Virus record (IMG/VR): IMGVR_UViG_3300021400_000468
Location: 36,469 to 100,468 of that record
Origin: a virus
Lineage: Duplodnaviria > Caudoviricetes
Strand: one strand, 5' to 3'
Length of the DNA stretch: 64,000 nucleotides
Each line of letters begins with the position of its first letter. Position 1 is the first letter of the stretch. The notes below the pieces were generated by a model, which saw only the letters and a list, made by a program, of their open reading frames with translations, made no database searches and had not been told where the DNA came from. Position numbers and translations under genes: made by a program. Positions 23,364 through 59,513 of the stretch are shown here, in pieces.

Positions 23364-23387
23364 TTTGTCACCTCATTTCAGGCGGGT

Positions 23388-23750: not shown

Positions 23751-23836
23751 ATTTATACAGACCTCCAATTATAGATTGAGGGAGGGACGTTCCCTTACGC
23801 CCCTCCCCATCTTCCGAACTTGCTTTCAGGAGCCGA

Positions 23837-24871
23837 TCAGGAAATACCGACGGCGATCATAGCGGACAGCGGGTAGTACACGATGACACCGGCGGTCCGG
23901 GATTCGCAGGGGATGACGGTTTCCAGATTCTTGGGCTGAGCGGAATACTGGCGGTAGGCCATGGGATTCTCAAGCGCGAGCTTGTCTTCCTTGTTGGTGA
24001 ACAGGAAAGCGACGCCCTGACCGTTGGAAGCGGCGGCAAAGGGGTTGGTCTCGACGGAATCGGCATTCAGCTCAGCGGTGGAAACGATATCCTTGATGTA
24101 GGGGCTGTTATCCAGCAGGAACTTCAGGATAGTCAGGCCGGTGTCCGGGATTCTCTTCGTGGCGATGTACATATACACGTCTGCGGGGATGCAGAGGGTA
24201 TCGGGACGCTCCACGTTCTTCGTGGTCACGGCGACGGTCTTCGCCATTCCGTTGATGTCATCGAGGATCTCATCCGGGGTCTTCTCAAACCACTTGGTCT
24301 TGCCGGAAGCGTTGGCAGGGATGGTGTACAGAGGGATGGACTGACCGGTGGACAGAACACCCATCAGGCCGGAGGTATCGTCGCCTCTCCACGCGATAGT
24401 GTTGACGGTCTTGTCGTTGGAGTACCGGGCGGCTTCGGCCTTTCTGGAATCGAGGTTCTTGTTCGCCAGACGGGAAGCTCTCATCTCCTGAACGGAATAG
24501 CCGTAGGACACGCCGATAGACTTGATCTTCGCCGTGGAGGGCTTGCCATCCACATCGGCTCTCGGCAGGTCATCGGAGTAGTTGTCGATGATCTTAGCGA
24601 GACCCTTCTTATCGTAGGAGTAGTAGGTGACGGTCTCAGCGCCCTCATCCACATCATGGGTGATCGGGAAGATCTGGAGGGCGGTCAGTTCGGGATATTC
24701 AACGTCATAGGATTTGGACTTGACGTAATCCAGTTCTCTGGCGAAGAATACGGACGCTTCCTCGGCGCTGTCGAAACGAGCCTGCTTGGAAGCCTGAATC
24801 GCTTCGGCGATGCCGGAATCCTTGATCGCACGAGCGTCCTTTCTGCTGTAGGACTTATGCTTGTTTGCCAT
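23837..24871 (-). CDS. Major capsid protein (DUF2184-like)
   Basis: FFARELDYV, DDLPRADV, YGYSVQE and RTAGVIVYYP motifs. Confidence 0.9.
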   Translation of the reverse strand: MANKHKSYSRKDARAIKDSGIAEAIQASKQARFDSAEEASVFFARELDYVKSKSYDVEYPELTALQIFPITHDVDEGAETVTYYSYDKKGLAKIIDNYSDDLPRADVDGKPSTAKIKSIGVSYGYSVQEMRASRLANKNLDSRKAEAARYSNDKTVNTIAWRGDDTSGLMGVLSTGQSIPLYTIPANASGKTKWFEKTPDEILDDINGMAKTVAVTTKNVERPDTLCIPADVYMYIATKRIPDTGLTILKFLLDNSPYIKDIVSTAELNADSVETNPFAAASNGQGVAFLFTNKEDKLALENPMAYRQYSAQPKNLETVIPCESRTAGVIVYYPLSAMIAVGIS

Positions 24872-30529: not shown

Positions 30530-31921
30530 TTAGTCATGGATTTCAACCTCACCCTTGTCGTTAATCACATAACGACCGGGTGTACGGCTCTTGTCAAGAA
30601 ATGCTCTGAGCTTATCCTTATCCACGGCGGTAATGGGCTTTCCTCCACCACCGGTGGCAATCAGAACAGGCTCGGATCCCATCGGGCCGCTGTTGTCATA
30701 CAGGCTGAACTCATCAAAATACTGAGCACACGCAACCGATGTATCGGTAACGGCTCCATGAATCTTTCTGACTTCATCCTCGGCAACAAGGCGGGGCGGA
30801 ACCTTACTTCTACCGGCTTCGTATTCAGCCTTGGCATGTTCATACCGACCCTGATTTCTCTTGAGAGCTTCTTCAATATCAAGGGTCATGTAGGAACCCA
30901 CCGCTCTGCACCCTGCGGCATGAGCCTGATCAATCTTCTTCTTCAGGCTCTTTACGCTTCCGTCGCCAGTTCCATCATAAACCGCATTCAAACCGGAATC
31001 CAGCGTTGCGGAATACAGGGACTTGGCAAGACCAGAGCTTTCCTCGTGATAATACCCGGCAGCTTTGGTGGACTTGGAAGCCATATCCTCATAACCGGGA
31101 AGCGCGGCTTTCATCTCATCCGGGTCAATTCCCACGCAGGAATTTTCGGGAAGAGCTTTTTCAGCCATCTTTCTCAGCCTTGACTTACCGGAAGCAGGTC
31201 CGCCGCCGAGAATCGTAACGACCCTCTGTCCTTCGGGCTGAGGAATCTTCCCTTCCAACTTATCACGGATAATCTCTCTGTGAACCTCCTGACGCTCTCT
31301 CGTGAAGTTTCCGTTCTTATCCAGATACTTCTTCGCGGAGTTGGGCTTGGTCTCGGTTCGGCAGTCATCGGCATTCACCGGCTTGCTCGAAATGCTCTCC
31401 CTACTAAGAGGAGTCCCGACCTTAACCGGAGAGGTCTTTCCCTGCTTCGCCCCGGAAGCGGTACTTCCAACACCAGCGGAAGCCCCGGAAGAACCGGAAG
31501 ATCCGGAAGAACTCTTCTTACTCTCAGCGTTCTTCTTGGCCTCGGCCTTGACCTCCTTGATATTCTTTCCGGTCATGGCATTAGGACCGGCGACCACTTC
31601 ACCCTCTTCATTCAAGGCAAAGTGCTTGCCGTTCTTCGTGGTTCTCCACTGGACGTCTTCGCCGTTTACCTGATCGGCATCAAACCGGCTTCCCGCCCCG
31701 CTATTATTATACCACATTTCGCCACGTTTGTCAATAGGAAGTTTATTGAAATCCCTATTTATTTCCGGGAGATTACGTTTGGCAAGCCGCTTGTTTCTGC
31801 GGTTATAAAACGCATCCACACTATCGGTGCGGACTTCCCCATCTCCAGACAGCCCGCGCTTGGCAAGTCTGGCATCCCGACGCTTCTTGTATTCGAGGAT
31901 TTTCTTGCGGTCATTCTGCAT
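30530..31921 (-). CDS. Head-associated protein with C-terminal zeta-toxin-like P-loop kinase
   Basis: LGGGPASGKS, IDPDEMK, HEESS, DGTG and LYDNSG motifs. Confidence 0.8.
   Translation of the reverse strand: MQNDRKKILEYKKRRDARLAKRGLSGDGEVRTDSVDAFYNRRNKRLAKRNLPEINRDFNKLPIDKRGEMWYNNSGAGSRFDADQVNGEDVQWRTTKNGKHFALNEEGEVVAGPNAMTGKNIKEVKAEAKKNAESKKSSSGSSGSSGASAGVGSTASGAKQGKTSPVKVGTPLSRESISSKPVNADDCRTETKPNSAKKYLDKNGNFTRERQEVHREIIRDKLEGKIPQPEGQRVVTILGGGPASGKSRLRKMAEKALPENSCVGIDPDEMKAALPGYEDMASKSTKAAGYYHEESSGLAKSLYSATLDSGLNAVYDGTGDGSVKSLKKKIDQAHAAGCRAVGSYMTLDIEEALKRNQGRYEHAKAEYEAGRSKVPPRLVAEDEVRKIHGAVTDTSVACAQYFDEFSLYDNSGPMGSEPVLIATGGGGKPITAVDKDKLRAFLDKSRTPGRYVINDKGEVEIHD
31706..31734 (-). promoter_or_regulatory. 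Intragenic sigmaA consensus promoter (extended -10)
   Basis: TTGACA-aacgtggcgaaatgtgg(17)-TATAAT. Confidence 0.8.
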
Positions 31922-32340: not shown

Positions 32341-32598
32341 TTACTCGGAATCGGAGTCACCTTCATCCGGGATGATCTCAATGTCCTTGATCTCATCTTC
32401 CCAGAGGACAAGCCCCATATCATCATCGTCAAGAGAAACCATGATCGAAGAAAACGCACCGTCCTCACGGTCACAGTCGCCCCTGCCCTCATACTCATCC
32501 ACAAAACACTTGATTGTCTTTCCGTCTGTGGTCTTGATCACAGCATGATGATCAGTGGCATGCCACATGAGATTGTCGATTTCCTTGCCCTTATCCAT
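32341..32598 (-). CDS. Small acidic protein, putative immunity protein
   Basis: 85 aa, overlaps the portal-fusion stop by 8 nt. Confidence 0.6.
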   Translation of the reverse strand: MDKGKEIDNLMWHATDHHAVIKTTDGKTIKCFVDEYEGRGDCDREDGAFSSIMVSLDDDDMGLVLWEDEIKDIEIIPDEGDSDSE

Positions 32599-35377
32599 TC
32601 TTACCCTCTGCTTTCGCTTTTTCTTCTTTCGCCTTTTCGTCCAACGCTTCCTTCAACCTCTGTTTATAATCCTTCGGTTTGGCGGGGACGAAATGACAGC
32701 CATCTTTTGCATAATGCACCGTCATACGATCCGTTTTAAGCCAGCAATCATGATCCCGATCATAGAAACGTCCAACAATCTTGCCAGCCGAGATGGTTTC
32801 CCGATAACAGGTATTACTGTCCGGCTTTCCATATGAAACACCATTTCCGTGATTTTGACTCAATATACTCTGAAGCTCTTTATCACTTACCGTGGTGTAG
32901 CTCGGAGGATTCCCATCTTTAATGCGCTGGTTATATTCGGCAGAGTCTTTCCTGTGAGGATTCTGCTTCTTCTTGTTCAGCCTATCGCTCACTATGCCAG
33001 ACGCAATTACGTAATCAAGCTGCTTGGACGGAATCTTTACGGGAGGATCATCCTGATATGATGGCGAACCTTTATTTGAAGATCCTCCTACCGATCCAGG
33101 TCTACCTCCATGTCCGAAGTTCCCGCTTCCGGGGCCTCCATCCATACTTATTATACCACCTTCTTCGTCAATTGTCAATATCTCAGACAACTTTTCAAAC
33201 AAAAGGTTCATGGATATTTTGAAGGGGCCAAACAGGTTATGACTGAATATATCGGGGATGGTACGGAACCGCTGATTATCCATTTCAAAATCGGCGGTAA
33301 TCATCTCACCCTCATACTCAGTGCAGAAGAACACAGCGGGAATAAGACCAGTATCCTCTTCAAAATCACCAAGACCGATCAACTTCAGGTTCAAGGGGGT
33401 AATGCCAAACTCTTCCTGCGTTTCCCGGACCGCAGCATCAGTTAGAGATTCACCGGGTTCCACATGACCACCGGGACCACAGAGCTGACCGAAGTGATCG
33501 ATATCCTTTCTGGTTCCGGTCAGGATCTTCATCTGCTTAAGATTCAGGACGAACACACCGACCGAACGGATACGTCGGAGAATGTCATCGTCCAACCACT
33601 CCTCGCTGGTCACATCTTCGACGGGATGGACAAGATCGGATTCGACAGCAGGAGAATCATCCTGTGATCCAGAGGCATCGTCTTCATGATCAGGTTCTTC
33701 TTCCTGATCAACCTCTTCTTGTACAGCCTCTTCTACCTGCTCAACCTCTTCCTGATCCTGCGGGAGTTTGGTAGCTTCGGGGGCGGATTCGGGGGCATTG
33801 CCGTATTCGGCATAATCATCGAAGTCGCCCTGTTCCATGAGATGACCGTCACCCTGAGCGGGTTGAGGAGCGACGCCCATCTGCGGAGCGGCACCTCCCA
33901 TGGCTTCCATACCGCCCATGCCACCTTCACCACCCTCTGCTCCCTGCTGACCCTGCGGTGCGCTTTCCATAAGCTCTTCTTCAGACATATCGTCGAGCAT
34001 GGATTCCACATCAAGATCATCGGGTTTGCCGAGGCCAACACGGACTTCTTTAGGATCGAGGACTTCCATACCGACATAGGTATTGGCAATGTTGGCACGG
34101 GTAAGCTCGTTCTGGAGCTTGGAGGATTCAAGCTGAACCTCTTCCGTCTCGGACATGGACCAAAGCGGATTGAAGGAAACTTTGAACTCCGGAACCTTCT
34201 CCACTTCCCCGGTATGCAGACCCGCCGCAAAAATCACGGAAAGCAGATACCGAAGGTTGGAGCGGAGCATCCTCTTCTGGATCCGTTCCACATAGTTATA
34301 GTAGTTCTCAAAGTCACTTTCACCGGTGGCATTCATACCGGCGGGAGAACGACCAAACAGAATGGTTTGGGGAATTGAGGTAATGGCCGAAAGCCAATTG
34401 CAAGAGGCATCGATTACTTCTTGCACTCCGGTGAATCCAAACGTCTGGAAGCTGTAATCCTCACCCTCTGCATCAATCGTAATGGAATTCAGAAGTCCGC
34501 GCGCAGTATCAATGGCCTCCAGTCTGCGGAGGACCTTATCCTCACCCTCTTCGGTTGCCAACAGGGCGGCGAGGTCCTTCATCCGATATACGGGTTGGAC
34601 GGATTTGGAAAGCATCTTCGGGGCGCTCTCATGGGCTACCTCGGCATTGCGGATGGCGCGGTTAATCCGGACGTATTCCGGAATGCCCCAAAGCCTGTAA
34701 TTCTCATAGCTGGTGTTCAGCGGAAGCATTCCGTTTCTGAACGCCAGCACACGGCTGTCATGAACCCAGAAATGCCCCCCGGTAATGGGATTGTTAATTT
34801 CATACCATTCCGGCGTACCGAGTCTGCTTCCGCGAGTTTGAAACGGATCGTTGGGTTCATGGTCGTATATCGAGGCATAATCCGGATTGATACAGGAGCG
34901 GTCAAAAACAAGGATATCATCAATGGACCGGATCCTCTTCCAGTCCAGCGGCTCTTCAAGGCCATGACCATCGTTGATGAGCATAATGGCGAGGGAACCG
35001 CCGAAAAGCCGCGCCCACTTGATTCCGGTCATTGCCACTTCTTCCCAATCAAGCTCGTCAAGGGCAGATTGGTAGAATTCAATCAGGTCCTTATCTTCAA
35101 CATCATCCAGTTCAAAACCATGCTTGACGGCTTCTTCAGCGGGAGTGTCTATGATCTTGGCAAACAGGCCGTTGTTCTCGTAGAACATCTCCAGAAGCAT
35201 ATCATCCACTACCGGTTCAGGCTGATAACGGTAGGCTTCGGTATCGTCCTTTTTGGTTCCGTACCGATTGACCATATTGACATAGCCGTCAAACCGATGA
35301 AGGGGAATCGCATTCCCGGTCTGCTTGCGCAGGACGTTTTCATATCTGCGCATATCGAATGCCATATCTCTATCCAC
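32591..35377 (-). CDS. Portal protein (DUF1073-like) fused to a Nudix hydrolase and a C-terminal Ntox50-like toxin domain
   Basis: KIIDTPAEE, WARLFGG, IPQTILFGRSPAGMNATGESD; Nudix box GGHVEPGESLTDAAVRETQEEFG; KQNPH...GKIVG...TVHYAKDGCHFVP. Confidence 0.85.
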   Translation of the reverse strand: MDRDMAFDMRRYENVLRKQTGNAIPLHRFDGYVNMVNRYGTKKDDTEAYRYQPEPVVDDMLLEMFYENNGLFAKIIDTPAEEAVKHGFELDDVEDKDLIEFYQSALDELDWEEVAMTGIKWARLFGGSLAIMLINDGHGLEEPLDWKRIRSIDDILVFDRSCINPDYASIYDHEPNDPFQTRGSRLGTPEWYEINNPITGGHFWVHDSRVLAFRNGMLPLNTSYENYRLWGIPEYVRINRAIRNAEVAHESAPKMLSKSVQPVYRMKDLAALLATEEGEDKVLRRLEAIDTARGLLNSITIDAEGEDYSFQTFGFTGVQEVIDASCNWLSAITSIPQTILFGRSPAGMNATGESDFENYYNYVERIQKRMLRSNLRYLLSVIFAAGLHTGEVEKVPEFKVSFNPLWSMSETEEVQLESSKLQNELTRANIANTYVGMEVLDPKEVRVGLGKPDDLDVESMLDDMSEEELMESAPQGQQGAEGGEGGMGGMEAMGGAAPQMGVAPQPAQGDGHLMEQGDFDDYAEYGNAPESAPEATKLPQDQEEVEQVEEAVQEEVDQEEEPDHEDDASGSQDDSPAVESDLVHPVEDVTSEEWLDDDILRRIRSVGVFVLNLKQMKILTGTRKDIDHFGQLCGPGGHVEPGESLTDAAVRETQEEFGITPLNLKLIGLGDFEEDTGLIPAVFFCTEYEGEMITADFEMDNQRFRTIPDIFSHNLFGPFKISMNLLFEKLSEILTIDEEGGIISMDGGPGSGNFGHGGRPGSVGGSSNKGSPSYQDDPPVKIPSKQLDYVIASGIVSDRLNKKKQNPHRKDSAEYNQRIKDGNPPSYTTVSDKELQSILSQNHGNGVSYGKPDSNTCYRETISAGKIVGRFYDRDHDCWLKTDRMTVHYAKDGCHFVPAKPKDYKQRLKEALDEKAKEEKAKAEGKNG
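33150..33178 (-). promoter_or_regulatory. Intragenic sigmaA consensus promoter (extended -10)
   Basis: TTGACA-attgacgaagaaggtgg(17)-TATAAT. Confidence 0.8.
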
Positions 35378-35395: not shown

Positions 35396-36805
35396 TTACA
35401 GAAGATTATTGATGTTAAACTGCGCCCTCAATTCTACTTCCGCAAAGCCATTCGCGGAGGCATCCACCATATCCTTGAACTTCCATTCCGGGAAGTTCTC
35501 AAGCTGCTCCAGATATGCCTCATTCCAGTCTGCATGAAGAATATCGAAATTTCCGGCTTGCCACTGAGCTGCCATAGGCTCTGCCCGGGACTCCTTACTT
35601 CCGGATTCAGAAACCGCCGTAACATCAAAACCGGACAACAGCTTTATGTATGACTGCGCCTGTTCCTTTCCGGCCTGACCGGGGTCCTGCGGCAACCTGA
35701 TCCGAACACGTTTGAACTCGGCCCTGTCCTTCTGTGCCGTGAGACGGATTGTCTGGCGCACATCGGAAGCAGCCATCTGTTTATTGATAACGTCCGCTAC
35801 AAGGTAACGTCCGTTTTTTCTCTTTCCTATCAACACCCCGGCTGTATACGCCGCGTCCCCGTTCTCATCCTTTTCGGTGGCGGCAAGGTCCCAGCATCTC
35901 ACCCACTGGATCACATCATTCGGAATGACCTCAAGAATATTGCCAAGCTGTGTGCGCTTGAAATACAGACCGGCACTCGGCTTGATCTTCCAGTTTCCGT
36001 AAAGAAGACGCTCCCTTTCCACAATGGACAGGGATTTCAGGTTTGCCAGATAGCTTGGGTTGACCTTCAGGAGTTCCTTATTGTCATAGATTGAAGAGGC
36101 AATAAAGGTAACGGATTTCGGCTCTTCCCTCTCTTCCGTGGTTTTGAGGTCGAACTGCTTCCACAACTCCGTTCGGCTGTCGGCCCAATACAGTTGCTCG
36201 TCACGACGGATGAACCACCTCTTGACGCCGCTTCTTTCCTGAATGGCATAACCGGAATCCTGATCAATCCACCACGAAATAAACTCCGCGACCCATGAAT
36301 TGGCGTCCGGGTTGCAAGTGGCGCGAACAAAGGGCTTTACGCCGCAGGTACTACGGTTACGGGACAGCATGTAGAAAAACTGACGCTCAGAAAAATGGGT
36401 AAGCTCATCCCAACAGATTTCCGCTATCTGCGAACCCTGCCAATTATGGACGGCATCATCTCTGTCCAAGTGGGCGAACTTTACTCTTCCGAGAATTTCC
36501 CCCTCCGGACTTCTGAACATCCACGACCCATCGCCGCCTCTCTTCTCGGCTCCGGGAATACTGTGGTATATCTTGTCGGCTTCATCCCAAAGACCGCCTT
36601 GGCTGAAGATCTGATTGTAGTTCTTACGAAAGATGGTACAGGTAAACCCCGGAACGTTTTTGTACCGCAGGGGAGTAAGCAAAAGGCCGTAGCTCTTCCC
36701 TCCACCGGCGGAACCGCCATAAATGCAGATGTCAGCGCTTGTGGCAAGAAATCGTTCCTGCGGTCCGGGCTGAGGCTTGATAATCATTGTTTCTTTTCCA
36801 GCCAT
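35396..36805 (-). CDS. terL: Terminase large subunit
   Basis: PQPGPQ, YGGSAGGGKS Walker A, WDELTHF Walker B, WDLA and DMVDA nuclease motifs. Confidence 0.92.
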   Translation of the reverse strand: MAGKETMIIKPQPGPQERFLATSADICIYGGSAGGGKSYGLLLTPLRYKNVPGFTCTIFRKNYNQIFSQGGLWDEADKIYHSIPGAEKRGGDGSWMFRSPEGEILGRVKFAHLDRDDAVHNWQGSQIAEICWDELTHFSERQFFYMLSRNRSTCGVKPFVRATCNPDANSWVAEFISWWIDQDSGYAIQERSGVKRWFIRRDEQLYWADSRTELWKQFDLKTTEEREEPKSVTFIASSIYDNKELLKVNPSYLANLKSLSIVERERLLYGNWKIKPSAGLYFKRTQLGNILEVIPNDVIQWVRCWDLAATEKDENGDAAYTAGVLIGKRKNGRYLVADVINKQMAASDVRQTIRLTAQKDRAEFKRVRIRLPQDPGQAGKEQAQSYIKLLSGFDVTAVSESGSKESRAEPMAAQWQAGNFDILHADWNEAYLEQLENFPEWKFKDMVDASANGFAEVELRAQFNINNLL

Positions 36806-37215
36806 TACGCATCTTCATTCTCCTCCGGATCTTCTTCTATCGCGGGCAGATAAATCATTACATCCGGGACGTTGGTAACATCCACCGAACTTTCTGGAGC
36901 ATTGATCTCCACAAGCGGTCTGTCGGTCTGTCCCAAGAACTGCTTACCGAGAAAAATAGCCATAGCCGCAGATTTTTCAGACAGCTTAAGCTGATTCCGG
37001 CGCAGTTTGATTTTCAGAGCCATGGATCCGTTTTGTCTGGAATACTCTTGAAAACTCATTCCGAACGTCCGCTTGCACCATCGGCTCAAGGTATCGCCAT
37101 TCGCAGGTTTCCCGAACTCATCCCGGAACCACCAGCAAATCTCCTCTGCGCTGCATCCGAGTCCTACGAGATCGATAAACTGCTTCTCATCAAATTCTTT
37201 CAATGGGCGGGCCAT
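36805..37215 (-). CDS. terS: Terminase small subunit
   Basis: N-terminal HTH, MAIFLGKQFLGQTD motif, abuts terL. Confidence 0.75.
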   Translation of the reverse strand: MARPLKEFDEKQFIDLVGLGCSAEEICWWFRDEFGKPANGDTLSRWCKRTFGMSFQEYSRQNGSMALKIKLRRNQLKLSEKSAAMAIFLGKQFLGQTDRPLVEINAPESSVDVTNVPDVMIYLPAIEEDPEENEDA

Positions 37216-37234
37216 TGAAGACACCCCCTCTGTT

Positions 37235-37924
37235 TTACTTGATCGCTAACCATCCGGCGAAGTTCAGGTATCTCCAGAAGCAGTCCACTTTGGAGAATCC
37301 GGTGGTGCGAAGAAGGTCCTCATTCCAATGGGCGGTAATGGGAACCAAAACACCCTCAAGGCTTTTCCGCTTCGCGGCGATCTGTTCCTGCGTATACAGG
37401 TTGTCTGCCTTGATCTGGTAGTATTCGGTCACGAGAACGTCATCAATCTCGTCGGTATTGCCGAGGACCTTTTCCACCATAATCAAAGCACCACCGGGAA
37501 CCAGCCGGTCATAGGCACTCCGGACAATCTTCTGACGGTATTCTATCGGCGTGAACTGAAGCGTCAGAATGCTGAGAATCAGACTGCATTCAACTTCCGG
37601 AAGACCCTTCGTAATATCATACAGCCTTGCATCAATATAACCGAACCTCTTCTTCAGTTCCTCAATCATAGGCTCGCTTACATCAAGACACACATAACCG
37701 AAATCGTCTCCAAACTTCCGGACAAACGGAGCAATGGCATTTCCATTACTGCACCCGATATCCATGATGGTTGTATTCGGCTTCAGGTAATGACATCCGA
37801 TCTTTGTGACCAGCTCCCGCATATCGTTATATCCGGGAATGGAACGCTCCAGCATTTCATCGAAACAGTCAGTCACTTCCTGATCAAATTTCCATTTTCC
37901 ATCGGGCATGACCTGATCCTTCAT
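37235..37924 (-). CDS. cmoA: CmoA-like carboxy-S-adenosylmethionine synthase
   Basis: WKFD.EV...FDEM..RSIPGY, DIGCS.G, LTLQF, EK and AKRKSL motifs, matching E. coli CmoA. Confidence 0.8.
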   Translation of the reverse strand: MKDQVMPDGKWKFDQEVTDCFDEMLERSIPGYNDMRELVTKIGCHYLKPNTTIMDIGCSNGNAIAPFVRKFGDDFGYVCLDVSEPMIEELKKRFGYIDARLYDITKGLPEVECSLILSILTLQFTPIEYRQKIVRSAYDRLVPGGALIMVEKVLGNTDEIDDVLVTEYYQIKADNLYTQEQIAAKRKSLEGVLVPITAHWNEDLLRTTGFSKVDCFWRYLNFAGWLAIK

Positions 37925-38769
37925 TTCTTCAACTCCTTCGCAATGTCATTGTACACGCCAATAATGGCCTTATGCTTCTTCGGATTGTATTTGCTTGCTA
38001 ACAACCTATCATGACATTCCCTCAATCGAGAATTTATCTGATAGCTATGGTCGGTCTGGTCACGATAATATGCCCCCTTCTTATAGTAGTCATCAAACGC
38101 CTTGATGCTGGCATATTTCGGAACAGGTTTATTGATCGCCGCAAGGGAGAACTGCCCAATATAATCGAAGATGGCTGGGGTATTGTAAAAGTCCGTGTTC
38201 TTCTTTCCAAACTGTCCGGCATAACGAGCGATATTCCCAGCGGAAAAATCCAGATCATCGCTGTAGCACTTCCGATATTTGGCTACGGCCTGATCTCCCC
38301 CATCATGAAACGCAACCTGCACCTTCCTCTGGGTACAGAAAAGGTCATCTCCACCGATCCCTGTAATTATATGATTTTCATCCATACGCGCATAAATATA
38401 CTTCCACGGAATCATGCACTGAATGATGGTCTTTTTTACGAGATGACAATACGGAATGACCTCCCGGATATCCCGGTACATTCTATCCACATCGGAAGGA
38501 ACACAGATTTCAGTCAACTCAAACCCAAAATCTTTTGCCAGCTTTCTGGATGATTTCAGATCTGCGGACAAAATGCCATCCATATAGAAGGTATAACAGT
38601 GAGGCTTCCGTCCGGTCTCCAACATGGAAAACAGAACCGTTATGGAATCCGTTCCGCCGCTCAACGCAAGGGCGGAAGTCCCATCCGGATCTATCTCCTT
38701 CACACGGTCAAGGCAGATTTGCCTAAACTTATCCGCGTCCTCACGCGAGAAATGCGTTTTCCATTCCAT
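37921..38769 (-). CDS. Asparagine-synthetase-like ATP-dependent amide ligase (synthetase domain only)
   Basis: PP-loop LSGGTDS and TGIGGDDLF; no N-terminal glutaminase domain. Confidence 0.75.
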   Translation of the reverse strand: MEWKTHFSREDADKFRQICLDRVKEIDPDGTSALALSGGTDSITVLFSMLETGRKPHCYTFYMDGILSADLKSSRKLAKDFGFELTEICVPSDVDRMYRDIREVIPYCHLVKKTIIQCMIPWKYIYARMDENHIITGIGGDDLFCTQRKVQVAFHDGGDQAVAKYRKCYSDDLDFSAGNIARYAGQFGKKNTDFYNTPAIFDYIGQFSLAAINKPVPKYASIKAFDDYYKKGAYYRDQTDHSYQINSRLRECHDRLLASKYNPKKHKAIIGVYNDIAKELKK

Positions 38770-39613
38770 CTTGTTTCAGCCTTTCGCTCAATTCCTCGGC
38801 GGCTACCGCATCTGCCGTAGCTACACCATACAGATAAACCACACCCAGCAGACATTTTCCCCTGTGATGATCGAGCTGAATGAAATCATGCTCTCTCTGA
38901 TCGTAAGGAAATTCCTCATGGTAATGTGCCTTGATCTGGTCGGTATAATCGGTATAGCTCGGTCGGCAATACCTGAACGATTCATCAAGATAATACCCGC
39001 AGTCCAAAGCCACAATCAGCTTCGGCCCCCACAGCTTATCAGCACCAATGCTCTCGGCCTTATCGCAGGTGGATACACAGGTAACCACCACATCGCACTC
39101 ATTGAGGAGCTGCATGGTATCACTGGTATCAACAGATACATTGCGGCAGACGGACATAAAATCGCCCACGTTCTTCGCATAATTGCGAGGGGATCCGCGC
39201 ACGACAATATCCTCAACCCCAAACGCTTTCTGGATCGCTATGCAGTTGGCGAGGTTGGTTCTTCCGGTTCCGATAAAGCCGACCTTATGTACTTCACCAA
39301 CATTCATTAACCGAATAGCAAGAGCTGTCATGGCGCCGCAGCGATATCTGGTCAGACCGGCATCGAAAAAACGTAGAGTCTTATGACCGTCATGAATATC
39401 GATGATCTCACTGGTCTCTCCACTCTCATCATCGATGGAGATCACCTTTTCTACTAAATTGCCCTTGACGGTTTTTGCGGACATATAGGTATCGGTTTCA
39501 ACAGCAACGCCGGAATCGTTCCTACGGCTTACATTCACTGATTTGGGATCGCAAAGGGAATCTGCGGTTCCGATCTTTGCGCTCCAATATTCATTGACAA
39601 ACCTTGAAAGCAT
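38741..39613 (-). CDS. Ornithine cyclodeaminase/mu-crystallin-like protein
   Basis: DAGLTRYRCGA..ALA followed by Rossmann VGFIGTG; DVVVTC. Confidence 0.65.
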   Translation of the reverse strand: MLSRFVNEYWSAKIGTADSLCDPKSVNVSRRNDSGVAVETDTYMSAKTVKGNLVEKVISIDDESGETSEIIDIHDGHKTLRFFDAGLTRYRCGAMTALAIRLMNVGEVHKVGFIGTGRTNLANCIAIQKAFGVEDIVVRGSPRNYAKNVGDFMSVCRNVSVDTSDTMQLLNECDVVVTCVSTCDKAESIGADKLWGPKLIVALDCGYYLDESFRYCRPSYTDYTDQIKAHYHEEFPYDQREHDFIQLDHHRGKCLLGVVYLYGVATADAVAAEELSERLKQDGMENAFLA

Positions 39614-39616
39614 GAC

Positions 39617-40714
39617 TTACTTTCCTATCTTATCCAGAATCTCAGTCTGTATGGTTTTGGAGATATGCATCATCATAACAGGGGGAACCATCCTTCCCGC
39701 TCTTTCCCACTTCTGACGGAAATCGCCGGTCAGTTTGAAATCATCGGGAAGGGACGTAATCCTCTTCAGTTCTTCAATGGTGAACTTCCGATCCTCCAGC
39801 GGGTGCATGTTTCCAGCAGAACTTAACGCGCCGCTCGAAGCCAGAACAGTGGAGCACGGGCAATACATGGATTCTCTGGAAAGATTGAACCATGAGCCGT
39901 TCATAACACTGGATCCCTTAACCGGACGCGGAGGATTCTTCGGGAGCTTTTTCAAGATCTGGGCCAGCTTCGTGGACTTGATCCCCTCGCGAAGCATATC
40001 GGCTTCTTCACGGTTATAGCTTACACCTTCAAAGGCATCTTTCAGCGTATAGTAATACGGAAGCGGTTTCGGGAAAACCGGATCCATATTCAGATCATTT
40101 CTCACCCCTACAAAAATGACACGCTCACGAGCCTGTGGAACACCAAGCCACTTTGAATTAAGAAGCTGTGCCTTGGCACGATATCCGCAGTTCTTCATAT
40201 CATTCAGGAAGATCTTGAAATACCCGATTGCGGTTCCCTTCACAAGACCGCTTACATTCTCGGCAACGAAGCACTTGGGCTGAAGATCATTCAGGAGACG
40301 GATATACTCGTAAAACAGGGTTTCAATCTGTTGGACCTTCCCATCGGAATAGTCACGTTCCTTCCCCCAGCCCTTCTCTCTTTTACCGGCAGTAGAAAAC
40401 GCACAACAGGGCGGAGACCCATCAAACAGATCAAGCTCTCCCTGCTTCAGTCCGGTACGGTCGAATATATCCTGTGCCTTGACCTGACGAATATCTCTCG
40501 TATCCAGATAGGCATCCGGATGGTTCATGCGGTATGTTCTCTGAGCTTCTTCCACAAACTCATTGGCCCATACGACATGATATCCTGCCATGCGATAACC
40601 GAGGCAGGAACCACCACCGCCGCTGAAGGTCGAAACGACTTTATATCCATTCCACGGAATCGCTTCGATCTCCTCCATGCTCGGCACTTTATAGGGGGGC
40701 TTAGTTCCACTCAT
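39617..40714 (-). CDS. C5-cytosine DNA methyltransferase homologue, probable carboxymethyltransferase
   Basis: FSGGGG (I), GSPPC (IV), ENV (VI), QARER (VIII); motif X reads GRMVPP instead of GN(A/S)VP. Confidence 0.85.
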   Translation of the reverse strand: MSGTKPPYKVPSMEEIEAIPWNGYKVVSTFSGGGGSCLGYRMAGYHVVWANEFVEEAQRTYRMNHPDAYLDTRDIRQVKAQDIFDRTGLKQGELDLFDGSPPCCAFSTAGKREKGWGKERDYSDGKVQQIETLFYEYIRLLNDLQPKCFVAENVSGLVKGTAIGYFKIFLNDMKNCGYRAKAQLLNSKWLGVPQARERVIFVGVRNDLNMDPVFPKPLPYYYTLKDAFEGVSYNREEADMLREGIKSTKLAQILKKLPKNPPRPVKGSSVMNGSWFNLSRESMYCPCSTVLASSGALSSAGNMHPLEDRKFTIEELKRITSLPDDFKLTGDFRQKWERAGRMVPPVMMMHISKTIQTEILDKIGK

Positions 40715-41201
40715 ATCCACACTCCGGACAAATCCATTTTACTGCCATCTCTTCCGTGAACTCCTTGAACTCGGGCGGAACCTCATCCTCTTCAACCTCC
40801 GGGGGTTCCTCTTCCGGATCATAATCCGCAGAATCACCGTCAAGGGAAGAGAAATCAAGGTCAAATCCCTCGAAGTCAAGCCCTTCCCGGTCGGTTTCCA
40901 GAAGCTCATAATCCCACGGGCTTTCATTGGTCTTGTTATCAACGATCCGAAGCTCTCGGATTTCCTCTTCCGTCAGGTTATCGGCGACCACGCAGGGGAC
41001 TTCATTCATCCCCAAATACTTAGCGGCCTGAAAACGGCATTCACCGATGACGATCTCTCCATCAACAGTAATTACGATAGGCTGCCGGAACCCATACCTC
41101 TGAATGGAGTTGGCAACATTCTTAATCTGCCTGTTGTCATGTATCTTCGCGTTCTTGCTGTACCCATGCAAGAAGCTAATGGACTTCATCTCAATTTTCA
41201 T
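40701..41201 (-). CDS. ParB/sulfiredoxin-like protein with C-terminal CxxC
   Basis: NAKIH, SIQRYGFRQPIV, LRIVDNK, CPECG. Confidence 0.8.
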   Translation of the reverse strand: MKIEMKSISFLHGYSKNAKIHDNRQIKNVANSIQRYGFRQPIVITVDGEIVIGECRFQAAKYLGMNEVPCVVADNLTEEEIRELRIVDNKTNESPWDYELLETDREGLDFEGFDLDFSSLDGDSADYDPEEEPPEVEEDEVPPEFKEFTEEMAVKWICPECGYEWN

Positions 41202-41677
41202 TTGCCAAGCCTCCGCGCAATCGCTCCACACCGAGGGCATCTGCACACCTCTTCGGTTTTTTCTGCCGGTTCCTTCTTCTCCTTCGGCTGAACATCGCCC
41301 GGATCCTCAAACAGATCATCGAACATAGGCTCAAAACCGTCAAAACCAAGATCGCTGATATCATCCTTCAGGACTGCATAATCCCATGGACTTTCGTTCA
41401 GCTTATTGTCTACGATCCGAAGCTCCTGAATCTCCTCATCGGTAAGATCATCCGCATAGGTAACAGGAACGGTTTCAAGACCGAGGCGCTTTGCCGCAAG
41501 CAGTCGGCAATGACCGATGATTACGACGTTGTTTGCATCCACAACAAGAGGCTGACGCCAGCCAAAACGCTTAATGGAATTGGCTACGTTAGACACCTGC
41601 ATCTCACTATGGATCTTGGCGTTCATATCGTAAGGTATCAGATCGGACACCTTTACTTCCTTAACAACAATTGACAC
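41198..41677 (-). CDS. ParB/sulfiredoxin-like protein with C-terminal CxxC (paralogue)
   Basis: NAKIH, FGWRQPLVVD, GHCRLLAAK, LRIVDNK, CPRCG. Confidence 0.8.
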   Translation of the reverse strand: MSIVVKEVKVSDLIPYDMNAKIHSEMQVSNVANSIKRFGWRQPLVVDANNVVIIGHCRLLAAKRLGLETVPVTYADDLTDEEIQELRIVDNKLNESPWDYAVLKDDISDLGFDGFEPMFDDLFEDPGDVQPKEKKEPAEKTEEVCRCPRCGAIARRLGK

Positions 41678-41696: not shown

Positions 41697-42509
41697 TCAG
41701 ACTGTCAGATATTTATAGGGGGTTATCAGCCCCCATTCCGCAAACTTCTCAAATCCACCGATCTTGTTGATGAACCCCCTCGCCAGCTCAACTATAAGCT
41801 GGTACTCTATTCCGTTCACGGTATCATCCCCAATAGCGCAACACAGCTCCACAGGCTTTCCGTCATGCTGGGCAAGGAGCCAAGCATATATGTTCACGCT
41901 CACATCGGCCTTGGAAAGATCCTTCCCATGAAGACCGCCTCCGGTAACGGAATCCCCCATATCACTCCCCAGCTTACGATTGGTGGCCCCGGTATCCACA
42001 TCCGTACCGCCAGTCCATTCACCCAGCGGATTGATAACGGCACCGGGGAACTTTGCGGTCAAATCTTCATTCGCTGCGTTGCTCTGGCAAATAATCAGCT
42101 TGTCATCCTTTTCGGACAGAATATACTTCCCGTCACTTTGATATGTTCTGTACAGCTCTTCCGCGATCCCGGTGAGCTTTCTCTGCTCTTCTGTAACCGG
42201 AACCCCTTTGAAAATGCCATTGTCTCCGCATCGGAATCCATGAGCCTGATTATCGGCAAGGTGGGCATCCTGCGGGACAATATCATATTCCACACAAATA
42301 GGACCGGCAATCCTGTGGATTATCTCTTCGGCCTCTCTCCACGAAATCCGAACCGAGGATTCCATGATAACATTGCAAAGGCCATGACCGATCAACACCT
42401 CAACGGCGATCTTCGGATCATGTTCCTTTTTATAGGCCAAATCGACAAGCGCTCCCGCTATGCGATCCGCAATCTTATCCGGATGGGCGGGATTCACCTT
42501 CTCAAACAC
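41697..42509 (-). CDS. metK: S-adenosylmethionine synthetase-like protein (short phage form)
   Basis: HPDKIADRIA, GDNG, GG...DTGATNRK, GGGLHGKDLSKAD. Confidence 0.8.
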   Translation of the reverse strand: MFEKVNPAHPDKIADRIAGALVDLAYKKEHDPKIAVEVLIGHGLCNVIMESSVRISWREAEEIIHRIAGPICVEYDIVPQDAHLADNQAHGFRCGDNGIFKGVPVTEEQRKLTGIAEELYRTYQSDGKYILSEKDDKLIICQSNAANEDLTAKFPGAVINPLGEWTGGTDVDTGATNRKLGSDMGDSVTGGGLHGKDLSKADVSVNIYAWLLAQHDGKPVELCCAIGDDTVNGIEYQLIVELARGFINKIGGFEKFAEWGLITPYKYLTV

Positions 42510-42705
42510 GCTGTATCACCCTTTCTTTTTTTCATTAGGGGCTTCTCAGACGTCCGAGAACGGCTCTGAAATCTCATTTGCTGCTTCACCAATACATCTT
42601 ACATGGTAAAAGTGCTAATGGCTCCAGAAAATACTGTTCAGACCTCCGAAAAACAAAAACGGACGATCCCTCATCGCCCGCTCGGTTCATCCAAATTTGA
42701 CAGCG

Positions 42706-49669: not shown

Positions 49670-50176
49670 TCACGCGGCTTTCTCATTCCGGGCCATGCTG
49701 ATTCTGATTTTGAACTCGCTGTATGTTTTAAACAACTGATCAAAATAGTCCTCTATTTCTTCACAACTCTTCAGCTCATCCTCCGTGATATCCCCATCTT
49801 GAGCGATATCGATCATATAGTTCATGTACCGCTCCACTTCATTTGGCCTTAGTTGTTTTACAACCTTAACCGCAATCCGCTCCATCGGAACCACTTCACA
49901 GGATAAAATCTCTGACCGATATTCCTTCAACGGGCACTCATGAACGCAATAATAATTTATCAGACGGGGAGCATTATACACATCGGCCATTCGCTTCACA
50001 ATATCCGGGGGAACGGACTTATGCTTGCCAAGCTCTATACTGGACAGATTGGATACGGACATATCAAGAAGTTCGGAAGCACTCTCGCGGCTCGAAAGAA
50101 CTGGGTTGAATTCTGAAGCCCTTTTCCTCTCTTCAAAGTAGATGTTGGGACTATCTTTCATACAATCACCCTGCAT
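49670..50176 (-). CDS. HTH regulator (CII-like)
   Basis: SRE.ASELL..S.SNL..IELG; DG.I..DE. Confidence 0.65.
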   Translation of the reverse strand: MQGDCMKDSPNIYFEERKRASEFNPVLSSRESASELLDMSVSNLSSIELGKHKSVPPDIVKRMADVYNAPRLINYYCVHECPLKEYRSEILSCEVVPMERIAVKVVKQLRPNEVERYMNYMIDIAQDGDITEDELKSCEEIEDYFDQLFKTYSEFKIRISMARNEKAA

Positions 50177-50537
50177 TGCTCTGATCCCCCATCTGTGGTA
50201 TACTTTCAGCAGATTCAGGAAACCCCAATTTCCTCTTGGAAACAGGAACCAACAAAAAAACGAGATCGTCCTGTTCTTCATCGGGATTGGACTTCATCTC
50301 TCCCAATTTACCACCGTACAGGATCTTATCGAACTCATCATACGACATGTGAAACAAATCACGCATCATCAGCTTTTCATAATCCTTCAAAAAAGTCTTG
50401 CCGGACTCTTTGGATTTGTATGCTCCGATACTCATCCCCAACATTTCGGCAGCTTCGGATTGGGCAATACGAGATCGCTTACGGATCGCTTTCAATCTCT
50501 CAGAATCGACTCTAATGATATAATCTTGCTTATCCAA
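50166..50537 (-). CDS. Cro-like XRE HTH regulator
   Basis: LKAIRKR..IAQSEAAEMLGMS..AY..KESG; divergent from repressor. Confidence 0.7.
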   Translation of the reverse strand: MDKQDYIIRVDSERLKAIRKRSRIAQSEAAEMLGMSIGAYKSKESGKTFLKDYEKLMMRDLFHMSYDEFDKILYGGKLGEMKSNPDEEQDDLVFLLVPVSKRKLGFPESAESIPQMGDQSNAG

Positions 50538-50565
50538 ATCATGAACACCTCGCTTTCTAATAAGA

Positions 50566-50594
50566 ATTATATACCTCTTTTCGGAAAATGTCAA
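50566..50594 (-). promoter_or_regulatory. Lytic (cro-side) promoter
   Basis: TTGACA-ttttccgaaaagaggta-TATAAT. Confidence 0.8.
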
Positions 50595-50646
50595 CCCCCA
50601 AAGCCATTTTTCTGTCCAAAAATTCATTTTTCTTTACGGAAAAGTG

Positions 50647-50675
50647 TTGATTTCCGATCAACCTTCCGATATAAT
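50647..50675 (+). promoter_or_regulatory. Repressor promoter
   Basis: TTGATT-N17-TATAAT; TTCCGA/TCGGAA half-sites recur in both switch promoters (possible operators). Confidence 0.65.
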
Positions 50676-50708
50676 CATACCATCCACAACCAACGGAGGA
50701 AGAACGCC

Positions 50709-51074
50709 ATGGCAAAACGCAACGACGAATACCGCATGAACATGATCGCGACCATTCAGAATAACCTCACCACTCTTATGAGGGCGCGCGGATGGGAGAA
50801 CACCGATCTCTCCACCGCAACAGGAATCGGTCTCTCCGACCTCTCCAAATACCGGAACATCGAGTACAACGTCCTCCCCCGCGTGACCGAAATCGCGAAA
50901 CTCTGCGAAGCCTTTCAGGTTACATTCGACTTCATGGTCGGCCTTGATCCAGCCGGACGTTATGCTGGACTCAGCGATGAGGAAAAGAAAATCCTCCATC
51001 TTTACACCTTGGCAGATGACAGGGATAAAATGCTGGTCAAGACAATCCTCGCCAAGAACGATCCCGACACTTAA
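50709..51074 (+). CDS. CI-like XRE repressor
   Basis: NL..LM..RGW...DLS.ATGI..S.LSKY...P.....KLC..F.VT.DF.VG; GGAGG RBS. Confidence 0.8.
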   Translation: MAKRNDEYRMNMIATIQNNLTTLMRARGWENTDLSTATGIGLSDLSKYRNIEYNVLPRVTEIAKLCEAFQVTFDFMVGLDPAGRYAGLSDEEKKILHLYTLADDRDKMLVKTILAKNDPDT

Positions 51075-51109
51075 TCATCTCCAAAGCCCAATTACCATTT
51101 ATTGGATAA

Positions 51110-51405
51110 ACTAAGGTTAACTTTTGGTTAACTACGCCATGATATGTTAACCTCAAAAATGGTCCGGAATTCCACACCATCATACGCAAACCCTTACGAC
51201 ACAAGGCTTCCAGAGTTACCGCTAAACGATGCAAAACGCCAGCGATAAAGCTCATAACCCGGAGGTCATGTGGTTCAAATCCCTTCCCCGCAAGCGAAAA
51301 AGTAACCTTTTTGAGGCTAAAACCCCTTGAAAAGGTTCTTTTTGTGAATAAAATAGACTTGGCAATAATTACCACCTCCTTCTGTGGTTAACAAAAGGTT
51401 AACTC
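51110..51405. mobile_element. attP: tRNA-fMet 3'-half core flanked by GGTTAAC arm-type repeats
   Basis: GCTCATAACCCGGAGGTC...GGTTCAAATCC...CCCCGCAA at 51250-51293; paired GGTTAAC at ~51115-51133 and ~51385-51404; directly downstream of integrase. Confidence 0.75.
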
Positions 51406-51435
51406 ATCTTTTTTCCGCAGAGGATTTTTTCTTCC

Positions 51436-52626
51436 TTAATTCTCTCCGAGGAACGCTTCGTTCAGGATATCTGCATTCTCTTTGTCGGCCTTCTCAATCA
51501 CATGGGCGTAGATGTTGGCGGTTGTGCTGACCTGAGCATGACCGAGACGGCGGGAAATGCTCACGCTGTCCGCTCCGTTGAAGTACAGGATCGACGCCAT
51601 ACTGTGGCGGAACGCATGGGGATTGATATGGGGAAGGCCATGCCTTTCAGAAAACCGCTCCAGCCAGCGGTTCGGACTGTCCGGGTGCATGGGATTCCCA
51701 TTATCCTTCGTAAACAGAAAGTCCTCATCTTCATAACACATCCCAACACGGATCTTTTCGCTTCCCTGCCATGCCTTTAGCTGACGGAGCAGTTTCATGG
51801 TTCCGGACGGAACGGCAATAACACGATATCCCCTTTTGGTCTTAGGGGTATCCACATAAACGCCCTTTCCGGGAGTATACTGGATGTTCCTCTGGATTGA
51901 GATCGTATTCTTCTCAAAATCAATGTCAGACCACTTCAGGCCAAGCACTTCCCCACGCCTCGCTCCTGTAATCAACATGACATGGACAAGAGCTTTCCAC
52001 TTTATCGGCTCACCCTCCAACGCCTCCCTGATCGCTTCAATTTCCTCTGGCTGAAAATACCGAACATCCGCTTTTTCTGCTTTCGGGGGAATCACCCTGT
52101 CGGCTGGATTGATTGGCAACTGTCCTTCCATAACGGCCTCCTTCAAAACAGCATGAATCAGCCGGTGATATTCCAAAACGGTTTTTCCGGAGAGCTTACC
52201 TCCGGTCTTTTTATTCATTCCATCCTGACCGAGCCACGAATAAAACGAATTCAGAGTGTCAGGATGAATATCCCTGATCTTCATATACCCCATCCGTTCA
52301 TTGATCCTCTCAGCCAGCTCCCTGTATCGGGCAATCGTAGAGGTCTTGACCTTCCGTTCTTCCTTCAGATTGATTACATACTCGCAATACTGAGAGAAGG
52401 TATAACGGGTATCGGTTGCCATTCCCTCCTTGCAAGCCTTCTCATAATTAGCTGCAAAGGCCTCCGCTTTCTTCCGTGCGGTTTTCTCAGACCATCCCGG
52501 TTCCACCTTGAACGTCGTGATATAAGGCTTGAGCTGCTTTCCCTCATTATCCCGTCCGCGATGAACCAGAATCTTATAGCCGGTCAAAACCCCTTCCTTA
52601 TTTCTTCGCTCCTGAAGCGATGCCAT
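51436..52626 (-). CDS. int: Tyrosine integrase
   Basis: TGARRGEVLGLKW, PKT, HAFRH, LGHA..STT.NIYAH. Confidence 0.92.
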   Translation of the reverse strand: MASLQERRNKEGVLTGYKILVHRGRDNEGKQLKPYITTFKVEPGWSEKTARKKAEAFAANYEKACKEGMATDTRYTFSQYCEYVINLKEERKVKTSTIARYRELAERINERMGYMKIRDIHPDTLNSFYSWLGQDGMNKKTGGKLSGKTVLEYHRLIHAVLKEAVMEGQLPINPADRVIPPKAEKADVRYFQPEEIEAIREALEGEPIKWKALVHVMLITGARRGEVLGLKWSDIDFEKNTISIQRNIQYTPGKGVYVDTPKTKRGYRVIAVPSGTMKLLRQLKAWQGSEKIRVGMCYEDEDFLFTKDNGNPMHPDSPNRWLERFSERHGLPHINPHAFRHSMASILYFNGADSVSISRRLGHAQVSTTANIYAHVIEKADKENADILNEAFLGEN

Positions 52627-52750
52627 AATCTCACCTCGTTTCCTCGGTGATATTGTACCACGGATGATCCCCTCATTCAACGGTAATCATCCAGAAAAAT
52701 CATTTTTGTAGCCGCGCACAAGATTTCCGTTCGGAAATCTGTTTTTCTTA

Positions 52751-58983: not shown

Positions 58984-58986
58984 AAA

Positions 58987-59057
58987 CAGGGGATGAAGGG
59001 CTCGAACCTTCTCCGTGGGTTCCAAAGACCCATGTACTACCGTTATACGAATCCCCC
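58987..59057 (-). tRNA. tRNA-Gln(UUG)
   Basis: GGGGGAT/ATCCCCT acceptor; TGGGT-CTTTGGA-ACCCA; GAAGG-TTCGAGC-CCTTC. Confidence 0.85.
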
Positions 59058-59062
59058 AAATC

Positions 59063-59494: not shown

Positions 59495-59513
59495 TTGCTT
59501 TCCTCTTCATCAA

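Follow-up and report, generated by a model that had tools for sequence, protein, structure and literature searches.

The stretch analysed here, called the window below, is the last 64 kb (64,000 nucleotides, positions 36,469 to 100,468) of a 100,468-bp virus record, IMGVR_UViG_3300021400_000468; a further 36 kb of the record lie upstream of it. On its minus strand, at 37235-40714 of the window, is a core of four genes. These encode a homologue of the DNA cytosine-C5 methyltransferases, a protein like ornithine cyclodeaminase (OCD) and mu-crystallin, a synthetase domain of the asparagine synthetase B (AsnB) type and a homologue of CmoA, and they are followed downstream by a small open reading frame (ORF) and the large terminase gene. 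In the order in which they would be transcribed, the four genes are as follows.

39617-40714, minus strand: predicted CmoX homologue (ORF 39617-40720; Pfam DNA_methylase, 1e-54)
38741-39613, minus strand: OCD/mu-crystallin-fold enzyme, 290 aa (Pfam PF02423 OCD_Mu_crystall, 1e-7, 31.7 bits against a cut-off of 24)
37921-38769, minus strand: predicted CmoY-type ATP-dependent amide ligase, 282 aa (Pfam Asn_synthase, 3e-8; phrog_26038, 5e-32)
37235-37924, minus strand: predicted CmoA homologue, a carboxy-S-adenosylmethionine synthase (NCBIfam TIGR00740, 4e-41, 141.2 bits)

A preliminary description made from the sequence alone had named these families and called the genes tightly coupled. Pfam and NCBIfam bear out the families, and the junctions bear out the coupling: the methyltransferase homologue is followed after 3 nt by the OCD-like gene, which overlaps the ligase gene by 29 nt, and the ligase gene overlaps that of CmoA by 4 nt. 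Further downstream, 10 nt separate CmoA from an ORF of 139 aa, which overlaps the large terminase gene by 1 nt. We read the four genes as a DNA hypermodification cassette of the CmoA-CmoX-CmoY type, in which the OCD-like enzyme would supply the nucleophile used by the ligase; its carrier is a large and probably temperate phage, and it would be expressed along with the packaging genes. By analogy with a characterised phage system, we consider this reading likely and hold it with good confidence.

The proposed carboxymethylcytosine pathway

The characterised system is that of Synechococcus phage S-B43, published in December 2025 (Yang et al., Nat Commun 2025; PMC12783734). There, CmoA makes carboxy-S-adenosylmethionine (Cx-SAM), CmoX uses Cx-SAM to form 5-carboxymethylcytosine (5cxmC) at GC sites, and the AsnS-like, ATP-dependent ligase CmoY attaches glycine. 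The same study recognised 5,615 CmoX candidates by an SPPC motif together with an Arg in motif X, often beside CmoA, ligases and ParBc proteins, and its authors left amide ligases with unidentified amine substrates to be worked out. The preliminary description had named a cyanophage CmoX/CmoY pathway and an engineered enzyme, M.MpeI N374K, and both are found in that paper.

The methyltransferase homologue is, by its sequence, a member of the CmoX family. Its best match in the PDB is the S-B43 enzyme, SpCmoX (8YF3, E 1e-79), along the full length (residues 8-365) and with 42% identity; the next is M.HaeIII at 8e-27. Residues are numbered here from a GTG at 40720; translation probably begins with the ATG at 40714. 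On this numbering, motif IV reads GSPPCC at residues 100-105 (SPPC 102-105) and aligns with GSPPCS of SpCmoX (its S95-C98 motif), ENV is found at residue 154, and QARER, of the form QxRxR, at 196. Motif X reads ERAGRMVPP against ERVGRMVPP in SpCmoX, and the Arg that had been pointed out there is indeed encoded, as Arg343, by the AGG at 39692-39694. Residues F32, E54, F55 and D76 align with F25, E47, F48 and D69, the contacts of SpCmoX to the adenine and ribose of Cx-SAM. Both SPPC and G-R-x-VPP are present in all eight of the CmoX homologues checked in related cassettes.

The significance of the Arg is known from SpCmoX: in its structure (8YF3, 1.9 Å), Arg350, which stands in place of Asn304 of M.HhaI, touches the carboxymethyl group. 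The wild-type enzyme takes Cx-SAM only and not S-adenosylmethionine (SAM), and the R350N mutant is inactive with both cofactors (PMC12783734). Because of the latter result, an Arg-to-Asn change in the window enzyme would probably give a dead enzyme rather than a methylase. The engineered CpG carboxymethyltransferase M.MpeI N374K is alike in having a basic residue in place of the motif-X Asn, which allows Cx-SAM to be used to form 5cxmC. The window enzyme differs from it in being natural, in having Arg and not Lys, and in belonging to a different methyltransferase lineage. By analogy with SpCmoX, which targets GC, its target is probably not CG.

The CmoA homologue matches E. coli CmoA (4GEK, 2e-27) and H. 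influenzae CmoA (1IM8, 2e-26) over its full length (residues 9-229), and it is 29% identical to SpCmoA. Its score does not reach the TIGR00740 cut-off of 193.3 bits. Since the biochemically validated SpCmoA, run as a control, scores lower still (115.6 bits), that cut-off is uninformative for phage CmoA proteins. The KR motif is kept as had been described, with AAKRKSLEG aligned to QKRSMLEN of E. coli, and R186 aligns with R213 of the 4GEK chain. Allowing for a 14-residue tag, the latter is native R199, the Arg that binds the Cx-SAM carboxylate. The fold and the Arg199 equivalent are thus shared with the E. coli CmoA/CmoB pathway to 5-carboxymethoxyuridine (cmo5U) in tRNA, in which Cx-SAM is made from SAM and prephenate; the same reaction is proposed for the window CmoA. 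Unlike that pathway, the cassette has no CmoB, and the acceptor would be a cytosine in DNA, reached through the C5-methyltransferase homologue.

It could be argued that the methyltransferase is an ordinary 5-methylcytosine enzyme and that the CmoA-like protein and the ligase are unrelated auxiliary genes of tRNA or general metabolism, and generic models do label these proteins "DNA methylase" and "tRNA methyltransferase". This reading has to contend with the Arg for Asn at the cofactor pocket, the conservation of the named Cx-SAM contacts, the lack of a CmoB partner, the order ParB-CmoX-...-CmoA kept across many phages, and an SpCmoX that makes no use of SAM (PMC12783734). We find it hardly credible.

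The ligase is a stand-alone AsnB-type synthetase domain with no glutaminase domain. It is 23% identical to SpCmoY at 92% coverage (E 4e-19), and its PP-loop, LSGGTDS at residues 36-42, is invariant in 29 homologues. An AlphaFold2 model (mean predicted local distance difference test, pLDDT, 95.1) has as its top Foldseek matches the synthetase domains of AsnB (1CT9) and beta-lactam synthetase (1MC1), with query-based template modelling (TM) scores of 0.69-0.77. With asparagine synthetase B, beta-lactam synthetase and carbapenam synthetase it shares the synthetase fold, the PP-loop and the expected chemistry of adenylation of a carboxylate followed by attack of a nitrogen nucleophile. It differs from them in lacking the N-terminal glutaminase and, by analogy with SpCmoY, in acting on a carboxylate that would be carried on DNA. 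Another cluster of CmoY proteins does bear an N-terminal glutaminase domain (PMC12783734). Because the window ligase has so little identity to SpCmoY and has a dedicated OCD-like partner, glycine is doubtful as its amine substrate.

Set beside S-B43, the window has the same three enzyme families at the identities given above, CmoA and CmoY near full length, and a ParB-domain neighbour, as near many of the 5,615 CmoX contigs. The order differs, being CmoA-CmoY-CmoX in S-B43 and CmoX-OCD-CmoY-CmoA here; the ligase, itself very divergent, has an OCD/mu-crystallin-like gene inserted ahead of it. The S-B43 host is a cyanobacterium, whereas the present phage is of a gut or rumen type, with hosts that would be Clostridia-like, and the window cassette lies within the packaging operon of an integrase-bearing phage. 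At the sequence level the features of CmoX, CmoA and CmoY are all found, and the reading put forward in the preliminary description, from CmoA and carboxy-SAM through an Arg-bearing methyltransferase and 5cxmC to an amide made by an AsnS-like ligase, agrees with the pathway demonstrated in S-B43. On these protein comparisons, the cassette is a member of the published CmoA-CmoX-CmoY system. Where the description fell short was the OCD-like gene, to which it gave no role. This gene is the only element of the cassette absent from the published system; the main text of PMC12783734 has no mention of cyclodeaminase, crystallin or dehydrogenase, and within the open-access literature (subscription journals being outside the scope) we found no link between the OCD family and phage DNA modification.

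The pathway that we propose runs as follows. By homology to S-B43, CmoA would convert SAM and prephenate to carboxy-SAM. CmoX would flip a cytosine out of duplex DNA, Cys105 would attack C6, and the carboxymethyl group would be transferred to C5 to give 5cxmC, with Arg343 holding the carboxylate of the cofactor. The CmoY-type ligase would then adenylate the 5cxmC carboxylate and couple it to a nitrogen nucleophile, leaving an amide. From its gene context and fold, the OCD-like enzyme would provide that nucleophile, most likely by making a non-standard alpha-amino or imino acid through NAD(P)H-dependent C-N chemistry and less likely by releasing ammonia. The final product would then probably differ from the published glycine amide.

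The OCD/mu-crystallin-like enzyme

The 290-aa protein is, as modelled, a genuine and very divergent two-domain enzyme of the OCD/mu-crystallin fold with a Rossmann NAD(P) site. Its AlphaFold2 model (pLDDT 91.9) matches OCD (1U7H/1X7D), pyrroline-2-carboxylate (Pyr2C) reductase (6T3E), CRYM (4BV9), CmnK (7CXS) and alanine dehydrogenase (AlaDH, 1OMO) in Foldseek at TM scores of 0.72-0.76 and about 15% identity; lysine cyclodeaminase (LCD), iminosuccinate reductase and SbnB fall in the same range, and an Atlas search agrees. Compared with the characterised members of the superfamily (1X7D, 6T3E, 4BV9, 7CXS, 4MP6 for SbnB, 1OMO), it has the same two domains, the Rossmann GxGxxx and the Arg of the LTxxR(T/C)G carboxylate motif, and it differs in its low identity, in forming a separate subfamily and in standing next to PP-loop enzymes. 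None of the functional subfamilies (OCD, LCD, AlaDH, Pyr2C reductase, SbnB/CmnK) can claim it by the NCBIfam equivalogs, all of which score far below their cut-offs; the best reaches 38.8 bits against 266.

The subfamily is small, sharply separated from its neighbours in sequence, and mostly of phage in the contexts examined. No relative occurs among 50,697 GenBank phage records. About 40 clusters were found in a set of 5.8 billion proteins, and an exhaustive profile search of 1.84 billion representatives gave 117 clusters (at 50% identity) with E<=1e-10, followed by a gap to partial matches with generic OCD proteins. Residues invariant in the family include K24, K56, R91, G112-x-x-G115-x-G117, G140-S141, D204 and E211, and R139 is present in at least 90% of members. 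The Rossmann motif is GFIGTGRTN (GFIGxGxxN in the family), and R91 lies within the LTxxR(T/C)G motif. From the OCD structures, we take R91 and the Lys residues K56 and K24 to be anchors for the alpha-carboxylate of the substrate. Strand beta-2 ends in V-R-G-S with no acidic residue. It is a general rule of Rossmann enzymes that lack of an acidic residue at this place goes with NADP(H), which suggests that NADP(H) would be the cofactor here.

In 16 related loci (L003, L008-L010, L012-L022 and L034 in our numbering, some of them duplicates), CmoX and CmoY are separated by the OCD-like gene. These loci are on different phage backbones, with different terminase and portal families; therefore, the cassette moves between phages. 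The window order, ParB-CmoX-OCD-CmoY-CmoA, recurs in the IMG/VR contigs L012 and L021/L022 and in L034, a contig of a Ruminococcus metagenome-assembled genome (MAG). A second arrangement (L008-L010, L013-L020, probably L003) runs ParB-CmoX-OCD, a different ligase only 24-28% identical to that of the window, a gene for an LPG_synthase_C protein, and CmoA. The ligase falls into two deep sequence types that are exchanged between cassettes. LPG_synthase_C (PF09924) is the aminoacyl-tRNA-dependent transferase domain of MprF; its gene, at L008:8714-9610, L010:8717-9604, L013:9581-10462 and L018:9660-10562, is absent from the window. Its presence suggests that in these relatives the hypermodified cytosine undergoes an additional aminoacylation, and favours, as far as gene content can tell, an amine with a second nucleophile.

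The association of the OCD-like gene with the ligase outlasts changes to the rest of the cassette. In L027 and L040 the order is rearranged and the OCD-like gene is still directly 5' of the ligase. There are also contexts with neither CmoX nor CmoA. Genes for an ATP-binding cassette (ABC) permease and an NMT1/SsuA-type binding protein flank the OCD-like gene on one side in L004-L006, and on its other side are genes for two PP-loop proteins like 3'-phosphoadenosine 5'-phosphosulfate (PAPS) reductase, with ParB-like genes; in L042 it stands ahead of a gene for a QueC-like PP-loop protein. A PP-loop adenylating enzyme is encoded directly downstream of it in nearly all the phage contexts examined. 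The Cmo-less cassette is seen at L005:4303-10068 and also in L004, L006 and L035. It is undescribed, and may be a separate route of nucleic-acid modification that draws on an imported compound.

We further propose that the OCD-like enzyme works as a pair with the glutaminase-less ligase, and that the two would together put a nitrogen group other than glycine, whether a non-proteinogenic amino or imino acid or ammonia, on 5cxmC to give an undescribed base, the OCD/PP-loop pair being reused in phage cassettes without CmoX and CmoA. We put this a little short of an even chance. Among the roles considered for the OCD-like enzyme, we place first that of making the amine itself, as a non-standard amino or imino acid; this narrower assignment is possible and is offered tentatively from gene context and fold.

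Instead of making an amine, the OCD-like enzyme might release ammonia by cyclodeamination or oxidative deamination and so replace a glutaminase domain, in which case the final base would be 5-carbamoylmethylcytosine. Its nearest folds include those of the cyclodeaminases and of archaeal alanine dehydrogenase. The ligase is a bare 282-aa synthetase domain in a family of which another cluster carries its own glutaminase (PMC12783734), and the OCD-like gene occupies the place of that domain, immediately ahead of the ligase gene, with which it shares 29 nt. Also, one OCD lineage serves two unrelated ligase types as well as the PAPS-reductase-like and QueC-like PP-loop enzymes, as would suit a generic nucleophile; ligase types that change behind one lineage are more easily squared with a generic product such as ammonia, or with a role apart from the ligase pocket, than with an amine tailored to it. 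However, the V-R-G-S turn suggests a reductive, NADP(H)-dependent role and not an NAD+ deaminase, and a primary amide is no good acceptor for the LPG_synthase_C-type protein whose gene follows the ligase in the second arrangement. No fusion of OCD to ligase was found among longer proteins, which is weak evidence in the same direction. On balance, ammonia release seems rather unlikely.

The anchoring residues and the LPG_synthase_C gene can be read in another way, namely that the OCD-like enzyme acts after ligation. The ligated compound would be a diamino acid such as ornithine or lysine, attached by the amine of its side chain, and its free alpha-amino-acid end would be oxidised, cyclised or reductively alkylated in the manner of opines while on the DNA. 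Retention of K56 and of R91 in its LTxxR(T/C)G motif, expected to anchor an alpha-carboxylate, would agree with this, as would the LPG_synthase_C gene of the relatives, a sign that some cassettes build further on the pendant group. We know of no OCD-family enzyme that acts on a polymer-bound substrate, and we consider this reading improbable. The position of the OCD-like gene ahead of the ligase supports it neither way.

Pairwise identities across ten loci associate the OCD-like protein with CmoX (Spearman 0.76) and CmoA (0.75) but not with the ligase (0.30); the sequences being related, these values are descriptive only. CmoA releases, in stoichiometric amount, phenylpyruvate, a 2-oxo acid, and the co-variation with CmoA might be taken to mean that the OCD-like enzyme disposes of this by-product, for example by reductive amination to phenylalanine, and has no connection with the ligase. 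The OCD family does include amino-acid dehydrogenases (8J1C, 1OMO). However, shared descent within the cassette explains the co-variation equally well, members stand beside PP-loop enzymes where there is no CmoA (L004-L006, L042), and two MAGs have a member of the OCD-like family and no CmoA homologue that could be found with the window query. We regard this role as very improbable.

Several observations weigh against the reading that we prefer, in which a cassette of this type protects DNA with an amide whose nitrogen comes from the OCD-like enzyme. The OCD-like members in L011, L032 and L039 have no PP-loop neighbour. The identities of the OCD-like proteins do not track those of the ligases, and two deep ligase types stand behind one OCD lineage. 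At its distance from SpCmoY, the amine used by the ligase is not readable from sequence. Finally, 6-bp palindromes with GC at the center are the most depleted class in the record, with 64 observed and 294 expected (0.22), as complete protection of GC sites would not predict. Palindromic hexamers with other centers are at 0.64-0.70, and non-palindromic NNGCNN is at 1.04 over the whole record. In control loci the same ratio ranges from 0.15 to 0.92 among other cassettes and is 0.34 in an Oscillospiraceae phage with no CmoX, so the depletion is not linked to the cassette. Restriction-site statistics were accordingly dropped as a read-out of the CmoX target, the pattern in the controls being unrelated to the cassette. 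Individual depleted sites include CAGCTG (2 observed, 36.6 expected), AAGCTT (2 and 35.9) and CGGCCG (0 and 18.2).

With S-B43 and its resistance to HhaI in vitro as the precedent, we infer an anti-restriction role for the window cassette: a bulky amide on its cytosines would shield the virion DNA from host nucleases.

The operon and the phage

The cassette appears to be part of a longer single unit on the minus strand, which consists of genes for a MetK-like protein, two ParB_N-domain proteins, CmoX, the OCD-like enzyme, the ligase, CmoA, the 139-aa ORF and TerL. The parts of this unit not listed above, and the hairpin ahead of it, are as follows.

42657-42683, minus strand: terminator-like hairpin of 11 pairs and a T run, closing the preceding gene
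41697-42509, minus strand: MetK-like protein, 270 aa, first gene of the unit (S-AdoMet_synt_N, 3.5e-9; TIGR01034, 5e-14 in two stretches)
41198-41677, minus strand: ParB_N-domain protein 1 (PF02195, 3e-7; phrog_620, 1e-41)
40701-41246, minus strand: ParB_N-domain protein 2 (PF02195, 1e-10; phrog_620, 3e-42), directly upstream of CmoX and overlapping its start region
36805-37224, minus strand: 139-aa ORF, putative small terminase subunit by position, overlapping the start of TerL by 1 nt
35396-36805, minus strand: TerL (Terminase_6N, 6e-19; Terminase_6C, 3e-13; phrog_979, 3e-155)

The unit probably starts after the hairpin, and on the minus strand from 42509 to 35396 there is no terminator of comparable strength. 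The MetK-like protein keeps the HPDK, DTG..RK and GGG..GKD motifs when compared with MetK structures and is about 115 aa shorter than bacterial MetK. Genes with about 67% DNA identity to it are found in many human-gut phages of Oscillospiraceae/Acutalibacteraceae, beside ParB-like genes and upstream of the terminase. Since the same gene is present in Oscillospiraceae phages with no CmoX, it is not specific to the cassette. Phage metK genes appear among auxiliary metabolic genes in at least part of the literature, and SAM supply is a possible role here.

The two ParB_N proteins are tandem paralogues, about 54-56% identical by tblastn. A ParBc neighbour is a reported feature of CmoX (PMC12783734), and a ParB-domain neighbour is retained in the related cassettes. 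As helpers to the cassette, judged by their domains, the ParB_N proteins would probably take part in DNA handling and the MetK-like protein in SAM supply. The 139-aa ORF had been called terS in the preliminary description. Its place directly before TerL speaks for that name; no Pfam, PHROG or NCBIfam profile recognises it, even at E 0.5.

The window proteins that were scanned are all of phage: tail fibre, baseplate, tape measure, sheath-like, major capsid, portal, TerL, integrase, MazG and HNH proteins. No terminal repeat was found in the 100,468-bp record, and no host flanks, host junctions or attachment site are visible in it. Other features of the window bear on the lifestyle of the phage and on its end of the record.

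51436-52680, minus strand: tyrosine integrase, within a lysogeny-type module (49670-52680) in mid-record
50142-51074, plus strand, and 49670-50281, minus strand: divergent helix-turn-helix regulators beside the integrase
58986-61857, minus strand: cluster of seven tRNA genes (Gln-TTG, Leu-CAA, Met-CAT twice, Ile-TAT, Ser-TGA, Thr-TGT) near the end of the record

The phage had been described as temperate, which the integrase and the divergent pair of regulators make plausible; the record itself offers no host junctions in support. The only pointers to the host are relatives that lie on contigs of Clostridia MAGs of rumen and gut origin; judged by these, the phage would be of a gut or rumen type with a Clostridia-like host.

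Some further genes of this phage deserve mention. A 609-aa protein with a GmrSD_N domain, of a family of type IV, modification-dependent nucleases, is encoded outside the window at L038:2659-4488 (record positions 22659-24488), and a Lar-like restriction-alleviation protein of the same phage is at L037:4643-5374. Both are of note given that the phage's own cytosines are probably hypermodified. PADLOC defence-system models gave generic methyltransferase matches only. The portal (Phage_portal_3; 32591-35377, minus strand) carries C-terminal NUDIX and Ntox50 toxin domains, and near it are a 463-aa protein with a Zeta-toxin kinase domain (30530-31921, minus strand) and, after that, a Mu F-like head protein. 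The NUDIX, Ntox50 and Zeta-toxin domains are possibly those of ejected effectors. A 2,083-aa tail-fibre-like protein (1016-7267, minus strand) has DUF6273 repeats and a weak CotH-kinase-like stretch.

A probable accessory enzyme for a published pathway

Since the core pathway is already published, a further example of it adds little, and the value of this one lies in the accessory OCD-like gene. It pairs a ligase of the kind whose amine is unassigned with a dedicated NAD(P) enzyme, and it does so in many independent phage backbones. If the OCD-like enzyme does feed the ligase, this would be a new nitrogen supply for an AsnB-type enzyme, and the final DNA base may be one not yet characterised. 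The four-gene set is a concrete and easily cloned starting point in the search for a new hypermodified cytosine, E. coli itself supplying Cx-SAM. The variants among the relatives, some with an aminoacyl-transferase-like gene and others with an ABC importer and PAPS-reductase-like proteins and no CmoX, suggest that a broader range of chemistry is built on 5cxmC than the one amide so far demonstrated.

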